Assembly: GCF_000341895.1 (NCBI RefSeq)
Contig: NC_020409.1
Span: 570,001-602,000 of the forward strand
Length of the DNA: 32,000 nucleotides
DNA from: Pseudodesulfovibrio piezophilus C1TLV30
GTDB taxonomy: Bacteria; Desulfobacterota; Desulfovibrionia; Desulfovibrionales; Desulfovibrionaceae
Direction of reading: 5' to 3'
Under the pieces are notes generated by a model. The model was not told where the DNA came from. It ran no database searches and worked only from the letters and a program-made list of their open reading frames with translations. The position numbers and the translations under genes are program-made. Below, piece by piece: positions 9,410-26,779 of the stretch. Numbering within the stretch: position 1 is the stretch's first letter; each line of letters opens with the position of its first letter.

Positions 9410-9937
9410 CTAGTCTACCCACCGCTTCATGGCATCTTCAAATAAGCCACGAGCTTTGAGAATATAGCTAATGGCTTCACGAACCGCACCATGGCCTCCA
9501 CGCTTAGTAGAGACCCAATCTGCAATCTCAAGAACTTCGGGCATGGCATTGGACACACTCATCGCGAGTCCGGCATATTTCATTACTCCGAGGTCAATCC
9601 AGTCATCTCCAATAAATGCAGCTTCAGATGGCTTTATTCCTATTTTATCACACATTTCAATCAAGTAAGGAACTTTTCGATGATTGCCAGCATAATAATG
9701 CTTAATACCAAGCTCAGAGATTCTTTTTTCAACCGGAGGTTGATCCAACCCGGTGATAACACCAATTTCAAGCCCTGCCGTCTGGGCGAGTTTGATACCG
9801 AGACCATCCTGAACATTAAACCGTTTCATGACCATACCTTCATTGGTATAGTACAAACCTCCATCTGTTAAAACCCCATCAACATCAAGCACAAGCAATT
9901 TTATATTCTGGGCAAGCTTGAAAGCACGATCAGCCAT
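9410..9937 (-). CDS. kdsC: 3-deoxy-D-manno-octulosonate 8-phosphate phosphatase (HAD-IIIA)
   Basis: DVDGVLTDG and GDDWIDL HAD motifs; 175 aa; 8-nt overlap with kdsA. Confidence 0.85.
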
Positions 9938-10739
9938 TATTCAACTCCCAAAGAGCCTTGAGGCGGGTGAGGAGAGCCTCCACAGCATCAAGTGGCAAAC
10001 TGTTCGGCCCATCACATTTTGCATTATCCGGATCAGGGTGGCACTCCATAAAAACCCCGTTTGCACCGGCGGCAACTGCAGCCGAAGCCAAAACAGGAAT
10101 ATATTCCCGCTGCCCTCCAGAGGCCTTGCCAAGCCCCCCCGGCAACTGGACCGAATGGGTTGCATCAAAAACTACTGGCACATCAAATTTTCGCATTTCA
10201 GGAATGGAGCGCATGTCTACAACCAAATTATTGTATCCATACGTTACCCCACGCTCTGTCAGCCAAATATTTTCATTACCCGAGGCCCGTAGCTTATTCA
10301 CGACATTTTCCATATCCCAAGGAGCAAGGAATTGGCCTTTTTTCACATTAACAATTTTGCCTGTCTTTGCTGCTGCAACAAGCAAATCTGTCTGCCTGCA
10401 TAAAAAAGCAGGAATTTGGAGAACGTCAGCGACCTCCGCAACCAAGGGGGCCTGTTCAGGATGATGAATATCCGTAACAATAGGAAGCCCGGTTTCAGCC
10501 TTGACCTCAGAAAGCAAACGCACGCCTTCCTGCATTCCAGGCCCTCGAAAACTCGTAACAGAAGTCCTGTTCGCCTTATCAAAAGAACTTTTAAAAACCA
10601 ACGGCAAACCGAGCCGATCTGCGATCGCTGCAAGCGTTGTCGCTGCACGCAGTACGATTTCACGGCTTTCAATGACACACGGTCCGGCCAGAATAAACGG
10701 ACCGGACCGACTTTTTTGATATAATTCGCTTAGAGCCAA
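9930..10739 (-). CDS. kdsA: 2-dehydro-3-deoxyphosphooctonate aldolase (KDO8P synthase)
   Basis: [20 protein letters not shown] and [11 protein letters not shown] motifs. The TTG start lies directly after the pyrG stop. Confidence 0.9.
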
Positions 10740-14486: not shown

Positions 14487-14579
14487 GGAGAGGTAGCGAA
14501 GTCCGGCCGTAACGCGCTCGACTCGAAATCGAGTTATGGGTCAAACCATACGTGGGTTCGAATCCCACCCTCTCCGCCA
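14487..14579 (+). tRNA. tRNA-Ser (anticodon CGA), class II with long variable arm, encoded CCA
   Basis: Acceptor GGAGAGG/CCTCTCC, anticodon stem CTCGA/TCGAG with loop CT-CGA-AA, long variable arm, T-arm GTGGG-TTCGAAT-CCCAC, discriminator G plus CCA. Confidence 0.9.
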
Positions 14580-14580
14580 T
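14560..14580 (+). repeat. attL core (3' end of tRNA-Ser)
   Basis: GAATCCCACCCTCTCCGCCAT, repeated at 20739-20760 with one extra C. Confidence 0.8.
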
Positions 14581-14643
14581 TGACAGCTAAGTCATCATTA
14601 TGACTAAAAATATAAGTAATAAAGTAGGTTCCGACTCCAAGAG

Positions 14644-14664
14644 GGTACACCAATCTGGTACACC
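14644..14664 (+). repeat. Direct 8-mer repeat GGTACACC x2 (13-nt period) just upstream of the integrase SD
   Basis: GGTACACC at 14644-14651 and at 14657-14664. Candidate operator or arm-type site. Confidence 0.5.
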
Positions 14665-14677
14665 TGAGGAGTCTACT

Positions 14678-16351
14678 ATGACCAAACCAGCCTACTTATT
14701 TCGCTCCAAAACTGGACTGTTCTACTTCCGTAGGAAAGTTCCTGCTGACCTCCTGACCGTCTATGGTGGGAGGAAACAAATCAAAAGATCATTACAGACC
14801 CATGACCCTCAGGAAGCCTATGAGCTTGTGAGGATTGAGGCCGTGCGCTCTGACCAAGAGTTCACTGAGCATAGGAAGATCATCAAGAGAGACAATAGCA
14901 GGAGACCGTCTGAGTCTTCTACACCTATGTCTGTACCTGAGATGAAACGCCGTGCATTACTGATGAAGCAACACATGCTGGAAGTTGATGATGAGCTACG
15001 TGTTTCAGGTGGATTCATTGAAGATGAAGACCACGAAGGCTACCTCCTCAGGTCTCAGGAACAGCTTGATGACATCAAACAAGCCTATGCCCGTGGGGAT
15101 GTAGATGCAGTCAAATCCCATATAAGGGAATGGACGAAGAATGAATCTGACATCCCTTATGAAGTGTCCTTGGAGTACATGAAGGCTTTGATTGAAGCCA
15201 CTGAGATACAGCTTGCAAGGAAGCAAGGTGAGATCATACTTACACCTGAGGTTCCTCCAAGTGAGGATGAGATACAGGTGGAAGTACCTGACCAGACTCC
15301 CGACAAGATCAAAGGCAATACCCTACGGAGCGTCTTCAAGAAGTACGTCGAGGAGCGACAGCCCAAAGGGAATACCGCTCGTGACTACCTTGCCCATATC
15401 CATAGGTTCACTCAGGTCTTAGGGGTTGATGACATAGCCCTTGATGACGTTACCCCTACTCATATCCGTACATTCAAGGATGTACTGGTACAGCTTCCTG
15501 CACGGGTTCCCAGTGAGATGAAGGGAATGACTGTCCTTGAGATGGTCAAGGCCATGAAGGGACGGGATGATATAGCACCACTCTCCGCAAAGACTATCAA
15601 TGACAAGGCTCTGAGCGCACTCAGGGCGGTCTATGGCTATGCTGTGAGGAATGGCTACTGTGACCATAACCCTGCACAGGGCATCAAGGTAGAAGTCTCC
15701 CTGAGGAAGCAGAAGGCTGGCAGCGACAGACTCCCATACTCTGTTGAAGACATGAATAAGATATTTCGTTTCCCGGTCTACACCGAGAATGACAGACCCA
15801 TAGGCGGGAAAGGTGAAGCTGCATACTGGCTACCACTACTGGCTGCGTTCACTGGCGCACGACTTGAGGAGCTTGGTCAGATTACCAAGGACAACGTGAG
15901 GAAGGAACGAGGCGTTCACTACATTGACCTCAGGGAACTTGATGAAGCCAAGACTGAGAACAGTAAGCGCAGGATACCAATACACCCTGAACTGATTAAA
16001 CTTGGCTTCCTGACCTACGTGAAGTCCATTAAGAGTGGACGGATATTCCCCGACCTACAGCGAGGTAAGGATGGTAAACTGACCTCCTCATTCTCAAAAT
16101 GGTGGGGAAGATATGCCCGTCAACACGGTGGTTGGGGTAAAGAGAAAGTGTTCCATTCCTTCCGTCACGCTGCCAAGGATGGCTTCCGAGAAGGTGACGT
16201 AGCAGAAGACCTGAGGGATGAACTCATGGGTCATGCTCCTAGGACCGTAGGCGAGTCCTATGGGTCTGGTAGTTCAATCAAGAGATTGTCTGAGGGAATG
16301 AGTAGGCTTACTTATCCCGGTCTTGATCTGTCGCATTTGACGAAGTGGTAG
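14678..16351 (+). CDS. Tyrosine-type site-specific integrase (large, ~557 aa)
   Basis: GAGGAG SD 6 nt before ATG 14678 (the ORF track start 14600 is an alternative). The N-terminal GLFYFRRKVP segment is typical of island integrases. C-terminal catalytic pattern: GARLEEL (R), HSFRH (HxxR), MGH, ESYG (Y). Confidence 0.9.
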   Translation: MTKPAYLFRSKTGLFYFRRKVPADLLTVYGGRKQIKRSLQTHDPQEAYELVRIEAVRSDQEFTEHRKIIKRDNSRRPSESSTPMSVPEMKRRALLMKQHMLEVDDELRVSGGFIEDEDHEGYLLRSQEQLDDIKQAYARGDVDAVKSHIREWTKNESDIPYEVSLEYMKALIEATEIQLARKQGEIILTPEVPPSEDEIQVEVPDQTPDKIKGNTLRSVFKKYVEERQPKGNTARDYLAHIHRFTQVLGVDDIALDDVTPTHIRTFKDVLVQLPARVPSEMKGMTVLEMVKAMKGRDDIAPLSAKTINDKALSALRAVYGYAVRNGYCDHNPAQGIKVEVSLRKQKAGSDRLPYSVEDMNKIFRFPVYTENDRPIGGKGEAAYWLPLLAAFTGARLEELGQITKDNVRKERGVHYIDLRELDEAKTENSKRRIPIHPELIKLGFLTYVKSIKSGRIFPDLQRGKDGKLTSSFSKWWGRYARQHGGWGKEKVFHSFRHAAKDGFREGDVAEDLRDELMGHAPRTVGESYGSGSSIKRLSEGMSRLTYPGLDLSHLTKW

Positions 16352-17027
16352 ACTCAACAGCAACGTTGTGGGAAGGCCCGTCCATCACTTTCTGACCTAT
16401 CAAAGTACCTATTATTGAGAAGAAAGCCACTGGCACAGCGACGATCAGTCCAACCTTTATAGAGTCCTTATTTCTTTGAAGAAAGGAGGTAACTTCCTCT
16501 GGACCTTTGATATACACTTCTGCTTTGATTTGTAGGCTACGCATTTCATAATATGCCCAAGCCAAGTATGCAAAATTAATGGGAAGCATCCACAGAATTT
16601 CTACCAGAGTGATAGAGTCCTTCATTATGGATTTAATCGAAGCGTAACCAACTGGGATTATCAACAGATAGAATAACCACGAGTATCTATTTAAGATCGT
16701 CCTCTTTCTCTCTGCGGCTTGTAGTATGGCATCAATTTCATGGAAAGCCGCTATTGGTTCAGGAGCGTCACTCGAAATACTTAGTGAAGTGTTCTTGGAT
16801 ACTGAGAGGTAAACATAGGGGTTTGAAGAGTCTATTGTTAGGTAGTCTAGCTCCTTCCCTTTATTCACTTCTTTCAATTCATCAATACTATCAAAGACAT
16901 AATCCCCGTCACGTATCTCAATATCCTCAGAATACTTCAATAACACAGCAACAATTCGTTCAATATCACCGATGAACAGTTTAGGGGCGCGATAACGACC
17001 ACTAGGCAGCTTCCTGATTTTCCTCAT
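16308..17027 (-). CDS. Hypothetical membrane protein (soluble N-domain plus 3 predicted TM helices)
   Basis: GGAGAG SD before ATG 17027 (GTG 17060 is an alternative). TM candidates are YSWLFYLLIIPVGYASI, LVEILWMLPINFAYLAWAYY and VGLIVAVPVAFFSIIGTLIG. I recognise no family. The 3' end overlaps the integrase 3' end by 44 nt (convergent). Confidence 0.6.
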   Translation of the reverse strand: MRKIRKLPSGRYRAPKLFIGDIERIVAVLLKYSEDIEIRDGDYVFDSIDELKEVNKGKELDYLTIDSSNPYVYLSVSKNTSLSISSDAPEPIAAFHEIDAILQAAERKRTILNRYSWLFYLLIIPVGYASIKSIMKDSITLVEILWMLPINFAYLAWAYYEMRSLQIKAEVYIKGPEEVTSFLQRNKDSIKVGLIVAVPVAFFSIIGTLIGQKVMDGPSHNVAVESTTSSNATDQDRDK

Positions 17028-17231
17028 AATCTCTCCAAATCTTTCAATATGCCTTATCACTTACCCCAAATAAATTCGACTACAAAATGTGAAGGGATGT
17101 ATAATACGTATACAACCGCGATTCCCCCCTTGCCTACCTGTCTACCAGCCTGAGAGGGATTAATTCCTTCCTCTACACACCCACCACATTCTCTACAATC
17201 TGCCACCATTCCCGGCGTAATTCAGAGCTTG

Positions 17232-17254
17232 AACGCGACAGATAACGCGACAGA
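17232..17254 (+). repeat. Tandem 11-mer AACGCGACAGA x2 (12-nt period)
   Basis: AACGCGACAGA-t-AACGCGACAGA, read directly at 17232-17242 and 17244-17254. Confidence 0.8.
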
Positions 17255-17742
17255 CTCCCGGCAACCGTTGGTATCACTACATCTACACTAGATACTATAT
17301 CTCCTAGAGTAACATACTCGCCGCCATTCCCACCTGAATGAGCATGAATGGAGGGGCTGTATGACAGCCAGTAGCGACCCTGTAGCCATCCACCTCACTA
17401 TCCATATAAATCTGAGCCACTTGTCTCTTAGATATACCGGTACTGTGATTACTAGACACTTAAAGATAATGAAGCGCACCCATTGGGATGCACATGCGAA
17501 TTATCAAGTGCAGTATGCAGCCATATGTGAGGCTGACTTAGAGGATGCCTGAACAAATGATACAGTGCTTCGGCAAACAACATCTCCCTCACAGTCACCT
17601 CACATATGGTGGCTATACTCACACCCAATCATTTCTGAATGGCCTATCGACCTCTACCCTGAGGTCTACCCTTGTCTCTTCTCCATTCGTTTGGAGTTCA
17701 TGCGTGGAGTGCAAACCACGTATGTATTGCGACCCATGGCAG

Positions 17743-17777
17743 CGTCACTAGCTCTCCCTGCTAGTGGCGTTGTTGTG
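17743..17777 (+). terminator. Terminator-like or attenuator-like hairpin about 90 nt upstream of the island operon
   Basis: CGTCACTAGC (17743-17752) pairs with GCTAGTGGCG (17760-17769): 10 bp including one G-U, loop TCTCCCT. It is followed by TTGTTGTG. Confidence 0.4.
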
Positions 17778-17857
17778 CGTTGGTGAGGTGGTGTGGGAGG
17801 TCTATTCGTTTCAAATTCTGCACCCATAGGGTGACACAAACAGGAGGCATATCAACT

Positions 17858-18145
17858 ATGCACACGGCAGATGAACAGGCTGACAAGCCCACTAAGACGT
17901 ACCTGACAAGAGGTAAGGATTCTAAGCGGATGTACTTCTACTCCGATAAGATGACCCTCTACAACTTCTACCTCATCAAAGGGTTCTACACTGAGAACCT
18001 TGGAGGGCAGGAGGTATCCACCTCTATCATCATGCGGAGAGCCTTGGAGCTACTGGCAAGGAATGTAGAGGCTATCTCTGAGGCTGGCTCCCCGGTCAAT
18101 GAGGTGAAGGATGAACTCTCACTGTTGTTCAGGAAGGTGCAGTAG
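17858..18145 (+). CDS. Small putative ribbon-helix-helix DNA-binding protein (95 aa)
   Basis: AGGAGG SD 10 nt before ATG 17858. KRMYFYSDKMTLYNFYLIKGF...VSTSIIMRRALELLARN fits a beta-strand/helix/helix RHH layout. This is a fold guess from the sequence pattern only. Confidence 0.55.
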   Translation: MHTADEQADKPTKTYLTRGKDSKRMYFYSDKMTLYNFYLIKGFYTENLGGQEVSTSIIMRRALELLARNVEAISEAGSPVNEVKDELSLLFRKVQ

Positions 18146-18147
18146 AC

Positions 18148-18453
18148 ATGAACGTAGACGTAAACAACATGACCAAGGAACAGCAAGAGATGCACGAAGC
18201 CATGATGACTGAGCTATGGTTTGTGACTCTCACTGCCACCATTGCGACCATGAAGCTCCCTGCCGACCAGATCAAGGCGGCACAGTTAGCACAGGCGCGA
18301 GGGTTCCTACTCGACAATGGAATTACCTTTGAGAGCCTGAACCCAATGAGGGCGCAGGAAGCTATGCAACAGGCATACACAACCATATTGAAAGACCTCC
18401 CGACACCGGAGGAACTGGACGCACGATTAAATGGAGAACAACATGACCAGTAA
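18148..18453 (+). CDS. Hypothetical protein (101 aa), helical, no recognised family
   Basis: AGGAAGG SD; the ATG lies 2 nt after the preceding stop (translational coupling). Confidence 0.5.
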   Translation: MNVDVNNMTKEQQEMHEAMMTELWFVTLTATIATMKLPADQIKAAQLAQARGFLLDNGITFESLNPMRAQEAMQQAYTTILKDLPTPEELDARLNGEQHDQ

Positions 18454-18625
18454 GAAGCAAGAGATACGCAAAGATGGCACGACTGTACGGAAGACCTGTG
18501 ACAACGGCGGGAAGCTGCCTGTCCTCACTATTGTTGATGCACCTGTAGGGACTGACAAGGACTGTGACTACAAGACCAAGGTTCCTCAGGGGCTTGGGAA
18601 TGTGACGTTGGCGCGAGGCAAGTAG
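18443..18625 (+). CDS. Hypothetical small protein (60 aa)
   Basis: GGAGAA SD 4-5 nt before ATG 18443 (18431 is an alternative). It overlaps the previous gene's end, and the next gene's ATG directly abuts its stop. Confidence 0.4.
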   Translation: MTSKKQEIRKDGTTVRKTCDNGGKLPVLTIVDAPVGTDKDCDYKTKVPQGLGNVTLARGK

Positions 18626-18883
18626 ATGGCTATACCTGAGAAGTATCGAGGATTCACATACACAGGAAAGATTCTGACTCTGAAACCGGAAGAGAAGCTG
18701 ACTGATGAAGAGATAATAGAATGGTTGCGAAGTATGGAACGAATTGGACAACCTCAGGCACTATACCCCGCAGGACTCTTGCGAATTGCTGAGAGGACTG
18801 AGGATGGTCATTACTTACTCCCGCCTCCTGAGGTGTGGGTAGAGCCTACTCCGAGGAAGTGGAGAGACATTAAGGGAGACTGA
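18626..18883 (+). CDS. Hypothetical protein (85 aa)
   Basis: The ATG lies immediately after the TAG of the preceding gene; GAGG SD upstream; no recognised family. Confidence 0.5.
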   Translation: MAIPEKYRGFTYTGKILTLKPEEKLTDEEIIEWLRSMERIGQPQALYPAGLLRIAERTEDGHYLLPPPEVWVEPTPRKWRDIKGD

Positions 18884-18884
18884 T

Positions 18885-19343
18885 ATGACGAACAAACATG
18901 AGAGGCTTACCTTGGAAGCCAATGCGATCTTCGTCAGCGCACAGATACAGATAAGGCACAAACTCAATCCTGAACAGGTGGAGACCTACCGGAACAACTA
19001 CCTGAATGGTATTGATATGCCGCCTATTGAGATTGCTCTGTTAGGTAATAGATATTGGGTAGTGGACGGGTTCCACCGTCTAGCAGCTATGAAGACTATC
19101 AACCCTGCCTACCCTGTTGATGCAATTCTCTTGAAGGGAATGTCACAAGCCAAGGTTAGGTGGAGGGCTGCGTCTGCGAACATGCAACACGGCCTACCTC
19201 TGACACGTACTGAGAAGCAACAGGCGTTCAAGGTCTTTGTGGGTCTCAAGATGAACCGTAAGACTTCCAAGAGGAAGCCCCTGAGGGATTGCGGCCCTAA
19301 GGACTTCATGTCCAGAAGTGGGTTCACTTTATCGGACCACTGA
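18885..19343 (+). CDS. ParB/Srx N-terminal-domain protein, 3' end apparently interrupted by IS insertion
   Basis: YWVVDGFHRLAA (DGxHR ParB-like motif) and NMQHGLPLTRTEKQQAF. GGGAGA SD. The stop codon TGA 19341-19343 is the first three bases of the IS terminal inverted repeat. Confidence 0.65.
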   Translation: MTNKHERLTLEANAIFVSAQIQIRHKLNPEQVETYRNNYLNGIDMPPIEIALLGNRYWVVDGFHRLAAMKTINPAYPVDAILLKGMSQAKVRWRAASANMQHGLPLTRTEKQQAFKVFVGLKMNRKTSKRKPLRDCGPKDFMSRSGFTLSDH

Positions 19344-19392
19344 GCGGCGAATTTAAGGTGGACAGTTTTACGTGTTACGCCGCCTTGTGGGT

Positions 19393-19424
19393 CCATCCCA
19401 GAGGGGGTACCCCCTCTGGGATGG
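19393..19424. repeat. Perfect 32-nt palindrome inside the IS, downstream of orfB
   Basis: CCATCCCAGAGGGGGTACCCCCTCTGGGATGG; every position pairs (checked base by base). Confidence 0.9.
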
Positions 19425-19468
19425 GACCGCTTTGATATATCTCCATCGGCTTGCGTCCGTCAAAGGTC

Positions 19469-20284
19469 TTAAGAAGGACCCCAATTATTGTAGAAGTTAA
19501 ACCACCAGGCCAAGGCACTCCGCAGCTCACTTCCTGTCTCCAGTTCCCGCAAGTAGACACATTCGTATTTCAAAGACTTCCAGAGTCGTTCGATCATGAC
19601 GTTATCCATCCAGCGTCCTCGGCCATCCATTGAAATGCGGATGCCAGCATCCCGCAGAGTCTTTGTGAATTCATAGCTGGTGAACTGGCTCCCCTGGTCT
19701 GTGTTGAATATCTCAGGTTCTCCATAACGGTTGATCGCATCCTCCAAAGCTACGACACAAAAGTCGGCCTCCATCGTATTCGACAAACGCCACGACAATA
19801 CTGCCCGGCTATGCCAATCCATGATTGCCACGAGATACAAGAAGCCTCGTTTCATCGGAATGTAAGTAATGTCGGTACACCAAACTTGATTTGGCTTTGT
19901 GATCTTCATGTTCCGCAACAAATACGGATATATTTTGTGCTGTGGATGAGGATCACTCGTCCTCGGTTTTTGGTAAATCGCCATCAAGCCCATCTTGCGC
20001 ATAAGTCGTCTCACACGACCACGGCCAACCAGATGCCTTTCATCCCGCAGAATGTTGCGCATCTGGCGTGAGCCGAAAAATGGTAGCTCCATGAACAACT
20101 CGTCGATGCGTTTCATCAACTCCAAGTTATACGATGATTCGCCAATCGGCTGATAATAGTATGTTGAGCGTTGCAGTTTGAGGATTCTGCATTGTCGCCG
20201 GACGCTGAGTTGTGGATGCTCTTTGTCGACGACTTCACGCCTTCGCTCGCAGCTCAGATTTTGGCGAAGGCTTGTTGCAAAAAA
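19469..20284 (-). CDS. IS3-family transposase OrfB (DDE), expressed as an OrfAB fusion by -1 frameshift
   Basis: The orfB frame is open from the T-TTT-TTG slippery heptamer (plus-strand 20278-20284). It reads [31 protein letters not shown] (D), [11 protein letters not shown] (D), [10 protein letters not shown] (E). The C-terminal end appears frameshifted (see findings). Confidence 0.8.
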
Positions 20285-20541
20285 TCCTTCTCGATCAGAA
20301 GTTGGCCGATCTTAGCGTGCAGATCCTTGATATGTGCATCGTCCATTTGCTGGCTCTTCTCTGCCTTGCCAGAAAATGACGCGACAATACCTTCTTTGGC
20401 TTGTCGTTTCCACGTGGATATCTGGTTGGTGTGAACTCCATACTTGCTGGCCAGCTCGGAAAGTGTGTGCTCGCCAGACAAAGCGTCGAGGGCTACACGG
20501 GCTTTGAATTCAGCAGTAAATCTTCTTCTCTTCTTGGACAT
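20254..20541 (-). CDS. IS3-family transposase OrfA (HTH)
   Basis: AAGGAGG SD before ATG 20541. MSKKRRRFTAEFKARVALDALSGEHTLSELASKYGVHTNQISTWKRQ is the classic IS3 OrfA pattern. Confidence 0.85.
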   Translation of the reverse strand: MSKKRRRFTAEFKARVALDALSGEHTLSELASKYGVHTNQISTWKRQAKEGIVASFSGKAEKSQQMDDAHIKDLHAKIGQLLIEKDFLQQAFAKI

Positions 20542-20738
20542 CGAAAAGCCTCCTTCGGCTATCATATGTCCCCCCTTATACTGTGGTCCAGTTTCTTAGA
20601 CCCACTTCTCATATCAACTAGGATGGCTTAAAAAGTTGCTCAATTGCTATCGAACGCTAAATCTCAACTTGCCAACTGTCACACCGACACAAGAACTGAA
20701 AATATCAATGATTCCAGGAGACACAGGGATCAAGGCTT

Positions 20739-20760
20739 GAATCCCACCCCTCTCCGCCAT
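20739..20760 (+). repeat. attR core (partial duplicate of the tRNA-Ser 3' end)
   Basis: GAATCCCACCCCTCTCCGCCAT. It matches 14560-14580 apart from one extra C, and similarity stops at ...CCAT in both copies. Confidence 0.8.
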
Positions 20761-21116
20761 GGAGATAAAAGCCCCTGTTGTCTTTGAAAACTCAATGGTG
20801 ATAGAGGCTTTCTTTTGCCTATTTCTCGAGATAACTGGAAGTAAAATTTTACTTAAGACGCATCTCAATACGCCTCTCTTAGCGTGCATCCTAAAGTCAC
20901 TGATATTATTATGTTATAATCAAATTTTAGTTACCCCAATCGTGACAAAGTATTCGCTTTGGTCTGCATAAATGCATTCAATTTCTTTCCATCTGGTTAC
21001 AATACCAGTTCATTATGCGTCATAATTATATGATCGTACCCTATCACTCCCCTATCTATTTTACATAAAAATTAACATACTGGACTATTCCACAACCTTA
21101 CCCCTTCGACTTATTA

Positions 21117-22623: not shown

Positions 22624-23223
22624 TTGTTTCAAACGAAGATATGGCGGATCATTTTGAACAATAAGGACAAAAGAAATGCAGAAGTTCTCTGCATTAATTA
22701 TGACGACTCCTTCAAGAAATTGTATAGAGCGAGTTTTGATTCATTGGTTTTGTACCTAAAAACACAATTCCGTTCATGCCCACAACAAGCAGAAGACATA
22801 GCCCAAAATGCTTTTGAAAAAATAGCGACTAGAAAAAATCCGGGACCCATTGGCAACATCAAGGCATTCCTCTGGCGCACAGCACATAATATCGCTATTT
22901 CCGATATACGTTCAAAACGATTGGCTACCAAATATCATGCAGAAACAAAGAATCTCTATGGGCAGGAAGAAGAATACCCTTTAACTCCTGAACGTATTTT
23001 AGAAGGGAAAGAACAGATTGGGCTGGCTGTACAGACACTTCGCCAAATGCCAGAGCAACGACGCAGAGCATTTATTTTAACAAGAATCGAAGGATTAAGC
23101 CACACCAAAGCCTCAGAAAAATTGGGAATATCTCGCCCAGCAGTCAGCAAACATGTTGCCAGAGCTACCTCCGATCTCTACACTGCATTGCATAATGAAC
23201 TCAGAAGCAGCACAAAAAAGTAA
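22624..23223 (+). CDS. ECF sigma factor, FecI-like
   Basis: Sigma-70 region 2 (AEDIAQNAFEKI...FLWRTAHNIAISDIR) and region 4 HTH (LSHTKASEKLGISRPAVSKHVARA). The gene is followed after 2 nt by a FecR gene. There is no in-frame ATG, so the start is TTG 22624 or TTG 22654. Confidence 0.8.
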   Translation: MFQTKIWRIILNNKDKRNAEVLCINYDDSFKKLYRASFDSLVLYLKTQFRSCPQQAEDIAQNAFEKIATRKNPGPIGNIKAFLWRTAHNIAISDIRSKRLATKYHAETKNLYGQEEEYPLTPERILEGKEQIGLAVQTLRQMPEQRRRAFILTRIEGLSHTKASEKLGISRPAVSKHVARATSDLYTALHNELRSSTKK

Positions 23224-23225
23224 CT

Positions 23226-24290
23226 ATGCATGAGATTGACGCAAATATCATAAACGTAGCCTGTCAGTGGCGCGCAACTTTGGCGGATGATCACGTTTCC
23301 ACCGTGGACAAAAACGCATTTGTCAAATGGCTCGAAGAAAACCCACTGCATAAAGAGGCCTATGAGCAAGTTGAAAAATTTTGGCAGGATCTGGAATTCT
23401 TAAAACAAGAATCTCTTGATGATTCTTTTTTCATTCCAACATGGCGAGAACGGACCAGATCCGTCGTGTGGAGAATACACGAGTGTATTAATAAAAAATC
23501 AAAGCCAGCGTTCTATGGTCTTGGAGGAGTGTGCGCGCTCGTACTGCTTGTATTTCTTTGTTTTCCCCAAATTATACTTTTTCCCTCGTATTCGGGGGAG
23601 ATCTTCGCCACTGGAATAGGAGAAAAAAAGACTCTTCACCTTGCCGACGGCAGCCGGATAACGCTGGGTGCTGACACATCAGTCAAGGTCACCTTCACTC
23701 GAACAAGCAGACATATACAAATGAGTACCGGTGAAGCATTTTATGAAGTAGCGAAAGATCCGAAAAGACCTTTTATCGTCGTGTCCGGAGAACATCAAAT
23801 CACAGTTCATGGCACAATATTTGATGTTCGTCATAATACCCAAAGAATACAGGTTGCAGTCAGAGAGGGAGTGGTAAGCGTAACAGCTTTACAAAAGATT
23901 TCTCCTTTGGATAGAACAAAGCCCCCCCAGCCTCCAACATCACACTCCCCTCTTGTACAATCCAAGATTCTGAAGGCTGGCGAACAACTGACAATCCTGG
24001 CTGAAAAAGGTTTACAGCCAGTTACTCACATCCAGCCTCAAAGCATTGGTCTATGGAGAAACAATATTCTAGCATATATCGACACACCTTTATCGGAAAT
24101 CGTAGCGGATATGAACAGATACCAAAGCCGAAAAATCAGTATCCATGATGCGCTCGTTGCAAATATAAAAATAACTGCCACATTCAATAGTAACGATGTT
24201 GATAAAACGCTCCAGACTCTAACAGAGATCTTGCCGATTCGGCTTGAATCCTCAACCGAGAGCTTACGTATTTATAGTGCTTTTAATTAA
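23226..24290 (+). CDS. FecR-family transmembrane anti-sigma / sensor protein
   Basis: Cytoplasmic anti-sigma N-domain (ACQWRATL...FVKWLEENPLHKEAYEQVEKFW), a single TM (AFYGLGGVCALVLLVFLCF) and a periplasmic FecR-type domain. Confidence 0.85.
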   Translation: MHEIDANIINVACQWRATLADDHVSTVDKNAFVKWLEENPLHKEAYEQVEKFWQDLEFLKQESLDDSFFIPTWRERTRSVVWRIHECINKKSKPAFYGLGGVCALVLLVFLCFPQIILFPSYSGEIFATGIGEKKTLHLADGSRITLGADTSVKVTFTRTSRHIQMSTGEAFYEVAKDPKRPFIVVSGEHQITVHGTIFDVRHNTQRIQVAVREGVVSVTALQKISPLDRTKPPQPPTSHSPLVQSKILKAGEQLTILAEKGLQPVTHIQPQSIGLWRNNILAYIDTPLSEIVADMNRYQSRKISIHDALVANIKITATFNSNDVDKTLQTLTEILPIRLESSTESLRIYSAFN

Positions 24291-24323
24291 TTTTCTTTAG
24301 ATATCACTTTTTACTCAGCCTAT

Positions 24324-24350
24324 GGTTACATCTCCCTCTTCTCGGGCGTC
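24324..24350 (+). promoter_or_regulatory. Candidate ECF-type promoter upstream of the TonB-dependent transducer
   Basis: GGTTAC-N17-CGTC resembles the generic ECF pattern GGAAC-N16/17-CGT. It lies about 60 nt before the probable GTG start. The match is weak. Confidence 0.25.
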
Positions 24351-24409
24351 TTATACAGTAGATGCGACTCAAACCGCATCAGCTAACACTTCCTGAGGAG
24401 GAAAATCAC

Positions 24410-26779
24410 GTGGTAACTTCGACTATTACTGTACCAAAATGCAACTCTTTTATAGCAACTTTCTTTTTTTTATTCATCACACTATTAGCCACTCAAGCAC
24501 TAGCTCAAGATGAGTATCGTGAATTAGACTTGCCACAGCAGTCTCTTCAAGAATCCTTGGTATCAGTTGGTAAAACATATGGAGTAACTATAGTTGCACC
24601 GAGTGATATTCTTCGAGATAAAATTGCACCACCAGTCTCCGGGCGGCTCTCTATTGAGCAAGCAATCAACCAACTGCTTCAAGACTCTGGACTTGAGAGG
24701 CAGCATTCATCTAACGGGTCTATTCTTCTCAAAAAAAAGGTCATCTTGACCAATACAGAGACGTCCTCCTCATCCAAAGCCTCGGATAAGAATGAAGAAC
24801 AGGGACTTCAACTTGCTCCCGTCATAGTCACCGGGGAACGGTCGGAACGCACACTGTATGAGACTGCGGCGTCCACTGCAGTCGTTTCAGGTGAAGACAT
24901 AGAGAAAACCCCTTCTTTCAAAGAAGTTGACGACATCCTTCAAACTATTCCAAACGTTGACCTGGGAGGAAACAGCAATGAAGGGCCAACAATCCGAGGT
25001 GTTAAAGCGGGTGGCCCATTAAGTGGAGTCTATGCCTTCTTTGGAGGCTCTCGGCCGAGGGCTACTATCACAGTTGATGGACGCTCTGTCAGTTTCGATG
25101 AATTCATATTTGGGGCCACCTCTGTATGGGATGTTCAAAGAGTCGAGGTTTTCCGAGGTCCACAAACCACTTCTCAGGGAGTAAACTCTATTGCTGGTGC
25201 CATTCATGTTGTCACCTCCGATCCTACATATGAACCACATTTCAAAGCACAGGCCGAGTACGGTGATTATAAAAGCGGCAGAATCTCAGCATCAGCTTCA
25301 GGCCCTCTTGTGGAAGACCAACTTGCCATTCTTCTGTCTGCAGATCTTCAACGAAGTGACAGTTTCATTGATATTCAGCCGACGTCGGATTATGGACCAG
25401 ACCCTAATACCTTTCTCAACGGCGTTATTCGAGGAAAGGTCTTGTGGGAGCCCACGAGTCTTCCTGAATTGAGAATGAAATTCACTCTCGGAAGCACTCG
25501 AAATGAGGCACCACAGGCTGAGTATGTCAAAACAACAGGCTCCATCAAAGACTTGAAGTCTATCTCTACGAATCTGCCGTCAAGACGTCTGATCGCGACG
25601 ACAGGAATACATGATGTTTCATATGAATTTTCAGATTCAATAAAGCTCAGCAACCGTTTTTCATACTCCGACATTGACAGCAATCGCTATGTTGATCTCC
25701 CAACATCTGGGAAAGCCAAATCGGAAAAAGATGAAGTATCCAATGAGACTACATTGCATTGGGAAAATCAGGAATCCGGATTGTCAGGGCTTATGGGGGT
25801 CTTTTACCAACACACCAATAGTGATGAATACCTCAATTACAGCCTTGCAGGAGAAGGGACTTTTGATGATTTGCAAACGAGTCTCGGACTCTACACTGAA
25901 GTGAATTACGATATCACGGACCGGTTGGATCTGACAATGGGGGTTCGGTATGAGCAAGACCGGCAGGACCGGTCAGGCGCAACTGTTGGCGGGAGTCTAT
26001 ACAACATAGACATGGAATATGACAAAACTTTTGAATCTATTCTTCCAAAAATATCGATCGGGTATGATGTATCTGATAATGTCAGAATTGGTGCACTTGT
26101 TTCACGAGGGTTCAACCCTGGTGGAGTGACACTTCTGTGGTCAGATGGCTCAACAAACTACTTCGATGAAGAAACAGTATGGAACTATGAGATATTCTCC
26201 CGTATCAAGTTACTTGAAAACCGACTCGTCCTTAACACCAATATCTTCTACGCAGATTACTCCGATTACCAACTCAATTATCTTGCCGGAGATTTCTATG
26301 GCAGCGCTGTTTATGGAATCGCCAATGCTGAAGAAGCTGTGAGCTACGGTCTTGAATTAAGTGCTGACTATCTCCCCACAGAGAAGCTCCACATCTACTC
26401 AGGGCTCGGCCTTCTTCAAACCGAGATTAAAAAATTCGATGATGCTGGTGGCATAGATGCTGAAGGTGCTTCATTCATGCGCTCTCCATCCATTACTTTG
26501 TCTCTCGGTGCTGATTATGAACTTATTAAAAATCTAACCATCGGTGGCCGCGCACGTTATGTGGGAGAATATAAAAGCGAAGATACCAACGATAGTCTTT
26601 CCGCAGGAGATTATGCTGTTGTCGATCTCCAGGCCAGTTATGAATACGACCCGTTTACCGTCTATGGATATGTCAACAATGTATTTGATTCATTTTATAC
26701 AATCAGTGAACTGACGGTTGGACGAGCAATTGTCGGCAATCCTCGAAAATTTGGTGTTGGCATAAAGTATAGCTTTTAG
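24410..26779 (+). CDS. TonB-dependent receptor/transducer with N-terminal STN signalling domain (FecA-like)
   Basis: GAGGAGG SD 8 nt before GTG 24410 (the ORF track ATG 24362 is an alternative). Features: signal peptide ...TQALA, STN domain (LDLPQQSLQESLVSVGKTYGVTIVAP), plug (APVIVTGER), and a beta-barrel ending GVGIKYSF. Confidence 0.9.
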   Translation: MVTSTITVPKCNSFIATFFFLFITLLATQALAQDEYRELDLPQQSLQESLVSVGKTYGVTIVAPSDILRDKIAPPVSGRLSIEQAINQLLQDSGLERQHSSNGSILLKKKVILTNTETSSSSKASDKNEEQGLQLAPVIVTGERSERTLYETAASTAVVSGEDIEKTPSFKEVDDILQTIPNVDLGGNSNEGPTIRGVKAGGPLSGVYAFFGGSRPRATITVDGRSVSFDEFIFGATSVWDVQRVEVFRGPQTTSQGVNSIAGAIHVVTSDPTYEPHFKAQAEYGDYKSGRISASASGPLVEDQLAILLSADLQRSDSFIDIQPTSDYGPDPNTFLNGVIRGKVLWEPTSLPELRMKFTLGSTRNEAPQAEYVKTTGSIKDLKSISTNLPSRRLIATTGIHDVSYEFSDSIKLSNRFSYSDIDSNRYVDLPTSGKAKSEKDEVSNETTLHWENQESGLSGLMGVFYQHTNSDEYLNYSLAGEGTFDDLQTSLGLYTEVNYDITDRLDLTMGVRYEQDRQDRSGATVGGSLYNIDMEYDKTFESILPKISIGYDVSDNVRIGALVSRGFNPGGVTLLWSDGSTNYFDEETVWNYEIFSRIKLLENRLVLNTNIFYADYSDYQLNYLAGDFYGSAVYGIANAEEAVSYGLELSADYLPTEKLHIYSGLGLLQTEIKKFDDAGGIDAEGASFMRSPSITLSLGADYELIKNLTIGGRARYVGEYKSEDTNDSLSAGDYAVVDLQASYEYDPFTVYGYVNNVFDSFYTISELTVGRAIVGNPRKFGVGIKYSF

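Follow-up and report, generated by a model that had tools for sequence, protein, structure and literature searches.

Introduction

Many of the islands in bacterial genomes that still lack an explanation are thought to be small helper-dependent elements, and we know of no satellites that have been characterized in anaerobic marine bacteria. In satellite P4, the integrase gene lies at one end, and the main operon is preceded by a promoter and a long untranslated leader that carries an RNA-based immunity. The present analysis concerns a 32,000-nt stretch of the genome of Pseudodesulfovibrio piezophilus C1TLV30 (NC_020409.1, positions 570,001 to 602,000; here called the window, with coordinates counted from its first letter) and, within it, an interval that begins at a tRNA-Ser gene. 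A preliminary description had taken this interval for a complete minimal element of ~6.2 kb with almost entirely unrecognizable cargo. Comparison with related loci pointed to a different identity, namely a copy of a larger element that is probably decayed and joined to foreign sequence at its right end. An island with a tyrosine integrase next to its tRNA target is of a common type; the rare family to which it belongs, with intact members of 7.8–8.0 kb, is undescribed.

With P4, this family shares an integrase at one end and, before the main operon, a putative promoter with a long leader, but it has no homologs of sid, psu, delta, alpha, or epsilon, and the fold predicted for its leader has scant covariation support. 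Islands of the Islander type, in which tyrosine integrases use tRNA genes (PMC4383910), are built on the same plan, with the intact tRNA at one end, a displaced copy of its 3′ part at the other, and int beside attL. In contrast to these, the family is small and of fixed size when intact, and it has a conserved core of 10–11 genes without outside homologs. PICMI, the minimalist satellites of Vibrionaceae, are defined by int, alpA, and a primase gene (DUF3987/DUF5906) beside fis, and resemble the family in their length (~6–8 kb), few genes, large non-coding regions, absence of capsid-remodeling genes, and possession of a gene overlapping int (PMC10803314). Here, however, int is the only one of these genes found, integration is at tRNA-Ser, and the gene that overlaps int codes for a membrane protein and is convergent with it; the PICMI markers PF05930, PF12728, PF13148, and PF19263 gave no matches in the window or in L003, an intact relative described below. 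VEIMEs, the virion-encapsidated integrative mobile elements of marine virus particles, are likewise small and integrase-bearing, with many genes that lack database homologs, and some carry small-terminase homologs (PMC9618062). They are defined by recovery from virions, whereas searches of phage and viral-contig collections did not turn up the present family, in which no AlpA or primase was detected.

Results

An island in the 3′ end of tRNA-Ser(CGA)

The interval 14560–20761 was confirmed as a genuine island, site-specifically integrated in the 3′ end of tRNA-Ser(CGA) of P. piezophilus (Table 1). ARAGORN and Rfam (57.3 bits) agreed on this gene, which is the only tRNA gene of the window. The last 21 nt of the tRNA recur at the right end (GAATCCCACCCCTCTCCGCCAT, 20740–20761) with a single inserted C, so that 21 of 22 nt agree. 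A T precedes the repeat in both copies, and to the right the likeness stops at the identical base (CGCCAT/T versus CGCCAT/G). An ungapped repeat search, with zero chance matches expected in the window, found only the first copy because of this indel. The integrase start codon (NCBI annotation) lies 98 nt past the tRNA end. Base composition was computed for the part of the island up to 19313: the G+C content was 0.479 at 14581–19313, compared to 0.432 in both flanks and 0.454 in the highest-scoring flank window of the same size, and AGA and AGG accounted for 53% of the Arg codons within the element, compared to 32% in the flanks (Fisher p = 3e-4). The displaced repeat with its extra C and common stopping point, the placement of the integrase, and the excess of G+C and AGG/AGA had all been claimed in the preliminary description, and each held up under these analyses, the last once it was computed. 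Since the mean G+C content of the C1TLV30 genome is ~50% (PMC3559428), the element is near the genome average, and the flanks are the low ones. Seven genomic islands of 8–30 kb have been reported for the strain; one of them, GI3, measures 9.8 kb, includes both a tRNA and an integrase, is listed as "unknown, nucleotide metabolism" (PMC3559428), and may contain this tRNA-Ser locus, although its coordinates could not be mapped.

A family of 7.8–8.0-kb elements and the truncation of the window copy

The ParB/Srx-family protein encoded in the island led to the relative L003, and the ~361-aa protein of L003 led to L014, L015, and L019. These four relatives are intact, measure 7.8–8.0 kb between att cores (L014, 7.9 kb; L015, 8.0 kb; L019, 7.8 kb), and are all bordered by the 18-nt core ATCCCACCCTCTCCGCCA. 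The metagenome contig L003 (7,883 bp) has attL and attR as its exact ends, starting with GGTTCGAATCCCACCCTCTCCGCCAT and finishing with ATCCCACCCTCTCCGCCATG. The tRNA-Ser(cga) gene is present on the L014 and L015 contigs; those of L003 and L019 begin within its 3′ end. The left context of L015 is that of the window (CTP synthase, PurQ, TadA, a NifX-like gene, and tRNA-Ser), with flank proteins 70–82% identical.

Gene order in the family is fixed. From the left, it comprises int, a convergent membrane-protein gene (mem), a non-coding region, and the genes g1 (~95 aa), g2 (91–107 aa), and g3 (64–82 aa). These are followed by a variable slot with one or two small genes, a gene for a ParB/Srx protein with a helix-turn-helix (HTH) domain (249–267 aa), and genes for a 219-aa and a 356–364-aa protein (the ~361-aa protein). 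An open reading frame (ORF) of 56–62 aa, called in three of the four intact relatives (L003, L015, and L019), comes last and is followed by a pair of GTACACC motifs and attR. That int is followed by a membrane-protein gene read leftward, and this in turn by a long non-coding region and an operon read rightward, had already been recognized in the window; the arrangement proved to be common to the relatives. Between the window and L003, protein identity is 61% for int, 29% for mem, 47% for g1, 56% for g2, and 46% for g3.

DNA homology ends at position 19313 of the window and 5033 of L003, just past the codons for DFMS, and the next base is the first of the inverted repeat of an IS3-family insertion sequence (IS). 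In the ParB/Srx gene, homology to the full-length proteins of the relatives covers codons 1–143 (to 19313); the last nine codons and the stop come from the IS. The window copy lacks the ParB C terminus, the 219-aa, ~361-aa, and ~60-aa genes, and the right-hand GTACACC pair. A complete element of ~6.2 kb is contradicted by the size of the intact relatives and by this breakpoint. The cargo is indeed unrecognizable, as had been stated, but the IS3 element, which makes up 21% of the att-bounded interval, and the truncated ParB/Srx gene had been overlooked.

The IS resembles other members of the IS3 family in its orfA (HTH_Tnp_1, 20254–20565) and orfB (rve, about 19469–20185, with an ORF called at 19469–20125) on the minus strand, its length of ~1.3 kb, its 27-nt terminal inverted repeats (19314–19340 and 20583–20609), and its multi-copy status, with an identical orfA protein in at least four copies in this genome. 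It differs in that no target-site duplication (3–4 bp sought) is present, the flanking sequences being ATGTCC and CATATC. One of its ends was placed where ParB homology is lost, and the opposite end follows from the inverted repeat. A suspected frameshift at the C terminus of orfB was dropped because the 238-aa product is shared by other copies in the genome and a 388-aa fusion protein is given in RefSeq. A perfect 32-nt palindrome (CCATCCCAGAGGGGGTACCCCCTCTGGGATGG, 19393–19424) lies inside the IS, near the orfB-distal end.

To the right of the IS lie 129 bp that are foreign to the 7.9-kb family. In L014, a second module of 2.7 kb (L014:11773–14480) sits in tandem after the family element; the same att core lies at its borders, and it carries no integrase. 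Its genes encode a resolvase-HTH fragment, a 292-aa protein with a PD-ExK-like motif, and a C5 DNA methylase, and it may be a restriction-modification cassette that relies on the integrase of its neighbor. Local alignment of the 129 bp with the right end of this second module gave a score of 33, reached by none of 500 shuffles. Alignments with the right ends of the four family elements did not exceed shuffles, whereas those ends score 53–68 among themselves. The left edge of the window attR (TTGAATCCC) agrees with the third att copy in L014, and not with the ATGTATCCC of family attR sites.

Collectively, these results make it quite probable that the window copy is a decayed composite of three parts that retains ~60% of a ~7.9-kb element. 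The left 4.75 kb (14581–19313) would be the left portion of a family element. The multi-copy IS3 abuts codon 143 of ParB/Srx, and the absence of a target-site duplication suggests an IS-associated deletion; it would fit an adjacent deletion or recombination between two IS copies. The 129 bp and attR would derive from a different att-bounded module that sat in tandem at the tRNA. In the simplest history, a deletion probably fused the tandem family element and second module. It would have taken ~2.7 kb of the former, comprising the C-terminal HTH of ParB, the 219-aa, ~361-aa, and ~60-aa ORFs, and the right-arm sites, as well as the att site in the middle and the greater part of the second module.

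Table 1. Features of the island and its tRNA target in the window
Feature	Position	Strand	Evidence or remark
tRNA-Ser(CGA), intact integration target	14487..14579	+	ARAGORN, Rfam RF00005
attL core, the tRNA 3′ end, GAATCCCACCCTCTCCGCCAT	14560..14580	+	Same core borders all relatives
Left-arm GTACACC pair, 13 nt apart, putative arm-type integrase sites	14645-14651, 14658-14664	+	Upstream of int start codon
int, large tyrosine integrase, 557 aa, DUF6538, SAM-like, and catalytic domains	14678..16351	+	CCH47797.1
mem, membrane protein, 239 aa, soluble N-terminal part and three hydrophobic segments	16308..17027	-	WP_041720103.1
Non-coding control region, ~800 nt	17028..17857	.	Five-member alignment
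g1, 95 aa, first operon gene, ribbon-helix-helix-like pattern	17858..18145	+	Conserved in 5/5 members
g2, 101 aa, conserved helical protein	18148..18453	+	Conserved in family
g3, 64 aa (RefSeq: 60 aa), conserved small protein	18431..18625	+	46% identity to L003 counterpart
v1, 85 aa, variable-slot gene	18626..18883	+	No counterpart in any relative
Truncated ParB/Srx-family gene, last operon ORF	18885..19343	+	phrog_1033 E = 5e-10; NCBI annotation agrees
IS3-family insertion sequence, 1,296 bp	19314..20609	-	PF01527, PF00665, PF13276; NCBIfam transpos_IS3 E = 1e-71
Right end, 129 bp, foreign to the 7.9-kb family	20610..20738	+	Local alignment
attR core with one extra C, TGAATCCCACCCCTCTCCGCCAT	20739..20761	+	Repeat comparison

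Integrase and candidate arm sites

The integrase matched PF20172 (E = 4e-20), PF13102, PF00589, and phrog_1 (E = 6e-38). Candidate catalytic residues, picked by eye from sequence motifs, are R421, K451, H519, R522, H545, and Y554 (583-aa numbering); they are invariant in alignment A1, and the window integrase appears intact. Between the core and int, each of the five family members has a left GTACACC pair, always at the same distance from the core (85–105 nt). In the four intact copies, pairs are present at both ends (spacing 13–14 nt), the left one ~90–100 nt inside attL and the right one ~100–115 nt before attR; the window copy has the left pair only. These pairs are obvious candidates for arm-type integrase binding sites. 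With the right pair lost, efficient excision is not expected even though int is intact, and excision of the window copy has probably been lost.

DUF6538-type integrases also occur in more distant settings, and no paper mentioning them was found in a literature search. Those recovered by a genome-collection scan were rejected as relatives, being no more than 34% identical and located in loci that carry none of the cargo. MT838812.1, a 6-kb virome scaffold with a related integrase, was also set aside; it shares no cargo. Seven of seven distant integrases of this type from other phyla (L005–L011, near 9760–10000) lie ~35–210 nt downstream of a tRNA gene and in the same orientation; the tRNAs are Glu, Phe, Ser, Leu, His, Met, and Pro.

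Membrane-protein gene

In the window, mem is convergent with int and overlaps its 3′ end by 44 nt; a convergent overlap of ~35–55 nt is constant in the window (16308–16351), L003, L014, L015, and L019. The window protein gave no family match in Pfam, PHROGs, PADLOC, or NCBIfam. It is 32–35% identical to its counterparts in L003, L014, and L019 in this comparison and has no detectable homology to that of L015, as expected of a slot that, on these alignments, is fast-evolving and replaceable. The C-terminal peptide ...SNATSPxPDK is kept even in L015, the remainder of whose protein is unrelated, presumably because it is encoded antisense to the integrase C terminus.

Four Logan contigs of 2.1–2.9 kb (L022–L025, from SRR1344817, SRR1344818, SRR1344820, and SRR1344821) match the window with 100% identity and extend over int and mem only (14602–17126, 14724–17132, 15010–17147, and 14681–17527). 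Three of the four stop at 17126–17147, that is, 100–120 nt upstream of the mem start codon. A public RNA-seq series exists for strain C1TLV30 (GSE58269, PRJNA251861; PMC10533852). Because the contigs are short and the accession numbers consecutive, the four runs probably belong to this series, but their membership could not be verified. If they are RNA-seq, int and mem are transcribed in culture.

Non-coding control region

The non-coding region measures about 770–860 nt in the family. Its left half is conserved as DNA, and tblastx scores were equal in all frames, which shows that the conserved blocks are not coding. A promoter-like TTCGAC-N18-TATAAT (17076–17105; N17/18 across the family) lies beside a ATACGTAT palindrome. 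Further along, tandem 9-mers (ACGCGACAG) occupy 17233–17241 and 17245–17253. These vary by subtype, with two copies of ACGCGACAG in the window, two of ACGCTACA in L003 (L003:2652–2671), and TTTCAACA or TTGCAACA in the others (L014:6540–6559 and L015:6540–6559). About 14 nt past the 9-mers are TTGGTA (17268–17273) and TAGATA (17289–17294), in a conserved block that extends until about 17326. An inverted repeat, AGAT-N5-ATCT (17290–17302), overlaps TAGATA and is invariant in the family. No known RNA family was found in the region (Rfam), and the covariation support for a structure computed by RNAalifold was too weak to claim one. The region looks like a switch with a shared operator and a subtype-specific site; divergent promoters, the conserved palindromic operator, and the 9-mers would together control the rightward operon. 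The 9-mers group the window with L003, and L014 with L015 and L019, a grouping matched by g2 and by no other protein. That g2 might bind the tandem 9-mers is a weak lead, with three independent groups.

Proteins of the rightward operon

The first operon product, g1, had been called a small ribbon-helix-helix-like DNA binder. The corresponding pattern is present in its sequence (RxxFYaD...TL...I..FY...S.S.vLRRAv, strand-helix-helix), but g1 has no Pfam or PDB match, and the label refers to this pattern only. In all five members, g2 matched the T7-type small terminase family PF11123 below the cut-off (best E = 6e-5; 23.4 bits versus a cut-off of 27.5). An hhalign comparison of g2 with T7 gp18, itself a true PF11123 member, was not significant (probability 0.6%).

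The truncated ParB/Srx protein is 70% identical to its L003 counterpart (P0002, 253 aa) over aa 1–145. Its N-terminal domain was recognized as PF02195 on the relative P0003, and profile matches to Noc, ParB, and sulfiredoxin structures were obtained at E = 0.004–0.01. The GERR arginine box of CTP-dependent ParB clamps is absent; at what we take to be its position, the sequence is DGFHR or DGYHR. The 219-aa protein is the most conserved of the family (64–69% identity between subtypes, with int at 61–82%) and is always exactly 219 aa long. Its structure model is confident (pLDDT 79, pTM 0.76) and all-helical with an N-terminal CCCH knuckle; except for the local zinc knuckle, nothing in PDB or BFVD matched it at E < 1. 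For the ~361-aa protein, AlphaFold gave a poor model (pLDDT 48), the Foldseek matches of which were discarded as meaningless. Profile searches gave no credible PDB match for g1, g2, or the 219-aa and ~361-aa proteins. No homologs of the family core proteins could be detected outside the family.

The family is also rare. Among 5.8 billion clusters, three matches were found for ParB, four for the ~361-aa protein, and four for the 219-aa protein; an exhaustive HMMER search of 1.84 billion proteins returned three g2 representatives at E < 1e-10. In total, about six family loci were found among billions of proteins.

Searches for life-cycle genes

Capsid, terminase, replication, relaxase, and type IV secretion genes had been reported missing from the window, and Pfam, PHROGs, NCBIfam, and PADLOC gave the same answer. 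In these scans, no member of the family carried a replication, conjugation, virion, AlpA/Xis, or defense family; PADLOC found no defense system, and Pfam and NCBIfam found no relaxase domain in any member. The hallmarks of P4-like elements (psu/sid/delta/alpha), PICI (pri-rep/terS/ppi), cf-PICI (capsid-portal-protease), and PLE (PLE core) had no Pfam, PHROGs, or NCBIfam matches; of the genes that define these satellites and PICMI, the integrase gene is the only one present. In tblastn searches of GenBank phages, the 219-aa and ~361-aa proteins found nothing, and ParB gave weak generic matches only.

Signs of turnover at the tRNA-Ser hotspot

Every family copy with a recovered left junction is located at one tRNA gene, and the recovered host flanks are of the sulfate-reducer type (Desulfovibrionaceae-like). 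The JGI metagenome contig L001 is almost identical to the chromosome of the window over the ~10.5 kb that precede the tRNA (~20 differences), and it holds a different family member at that tRNA, the integrase being 79% identical to that of L003 and 55% to that of the window. Different members thus occupy the same site in near-identical chromosomes. At the end of this contig (L001:10571–11339), integrase homology breaks off at about codon 225, and three consecutive short hairpins start (CCCCCGGCAAAGCCGGGGG, GAGCCACTCAAAGTGGCT, and CCGCCTAAAGGCGG) before the contig ends. In L014 and L015, the family occupies the same tRNA in differing chromosomal contexts. In L019, a second DUF6538 integrase (L019:7813–10129; 583 aa, ~25% identical to the family integrase) begins 140 nt past attR; different islands therefore stack at tRNA-Ser(CGA). 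The elements themselves are mosaic, with int, g2, g3, and ParB each grouping the five members differently. A different member in a near-identical chromosome, the use of one tRNA in several chromosomal contexts, the tandem arrays, and the mosaic modules all speak for recent recombination and turnover of elements at this site.

The surroundings of the site were also compared. A ferredoxin gene and an EamA gene to the left of the tRNA in L014 (L014:159–1287) are homologous, in inverted orientation, to a segment right of the element in L015 (L015:12829–14533), which suggests a chromosomal inversion with a breakpoint at the tRNA hotspot. In the window, translations of the right flank, read by eye, showed a MATE efflux gene followed by a cluster with an ECF sigma factor, a FecR-like anti-sigma factor, and a TonB-dependent receptor (22624–26779). 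This content is ordinary chromosomal and without similarity to the fetched loci of the relatives.

Discussion

The anatomy of the island and its truncation point can be read directly from the alignment with the four intact relatives, and an IS-associated fusion of two tandem modules would account for both. Several points weigh against this account or limit it. Neither an empty tRNA-Ser site nor an attP junction was found, so mobility rests on comparative evidence: the exact attB predicted from the tRNA end and the right flank had zero matches in metagenome contigs, and a degenerate pattern for the MATE gene of the right flank had zero matches in the metagenome scan. The intact relatives all come from metagenome or SRA assemblies and none from isolates, and no relatives were found in IMG/VR viral contigs (searched with int and the 219-aa and ~361-aa proteins) or in GenBank phages. 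The missing target-site duplication hinges on where the IS ends are placed, and the likeness to the second module of L014, though statistically clear, is short (~25 nt plus a few short blocks). The arm-site role of GTACACC and all regulatory roles are putative only. If the 6.2 kb were nevertheless a complete and functional minimal satellite or mobilizable element, with everything between the repeats as its cargo, the intact integrase, the presence of both att cores, and the uninterrupted state of the remaining ORFs would be explained. One-fifth of that cargo (21%) would then be an IS3 element, ParB/Srx would break off at codon 143, and neither the right-arm sites nor three genes conserved in the relatives would be there, all in contradiction to the comparison with L003, L014, L015, and L019; we regard such an element as highly improbable. 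That the segment is left over from a larger prophage or from an integrative conjugative element would be in keeping with the truncation, and IS-mediated decay is typical of dead prophages, but in four independent intact relatives the terminal att sites are 7.8–8.0 kb apart and enclose neither virion nor conjugation genes, which leaves this origin with next to no probability.

How the intact elements live is a separate question, and answers to it are necessarily more tentative. Because recognizable replication, conjugation, and virion genes are lacking, the intact family may rely on a helper for its transfer, most plausibly a phage, a proposal that we favor without considering it probable. A more specific version, in which the family is a new helper-dependent class (a phage satellite or minimal virus-like agent) with a core unrelated to known satellite modules, and g2 a very distant small-terminase-like DNA binder that recognizes the 9-mers as a packaging or switch site, draws on the agreement between the g2 and 9-mer groupings, the sole such agreement among the proteins, and seems to us doubtful. 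The ParB-superfamily protein, the subtype-specific tandem repeats within the long non-coding region, and the 219-aa protein, the most conserved of the family, could instead belong to a small integrative plasmid-like element, with the 219-aa and/or ~361-aa protein as a novel initiator, ParB/Srx-HTH in segregation or processing, and the 9-mers as iterons. Two repeat copies are atypical of an iteron array, however, no ParA partner is present, sequence and fold searches gave no similarity to Rep, primase, or helicase, and no free circular contig was recovered, so we think this unlikely. We give equally little weight to a cargo island moved by its integrase alone, whose operon would be an unrecognized defense, toxin, or host-interaction system. 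Turnover of the membrane and variable slots between members, the tandem restriction-modification cassette of L014, and the apparent expression of int and mem (if the SRR runs are RNA-seq) would suit such an island; PADLOC, on the other hand, came back empty, and a strict gene order, constant size, and a control region conserved across 70%-diverged members are better suited to a life-cycle module.

As a composite that has lost its right arm, the window copy is probably dead and of limited direct value. The analysis nonetheless replaces a mysterious minimal element by a concrete history, in which two tandem islands would have been fused and disabled by an insertion sequence. It also defines a family with a compact and fixed architecture of about ten genes, whose life-cycle genes are invisible to current models of satellites, plasmids, phages, and defense systems. 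With both intact and broken copies at hand, this small family offers a tractable case in which a new mechanism of transfer or hijacking in anaerobic marine bacteria may be sought.

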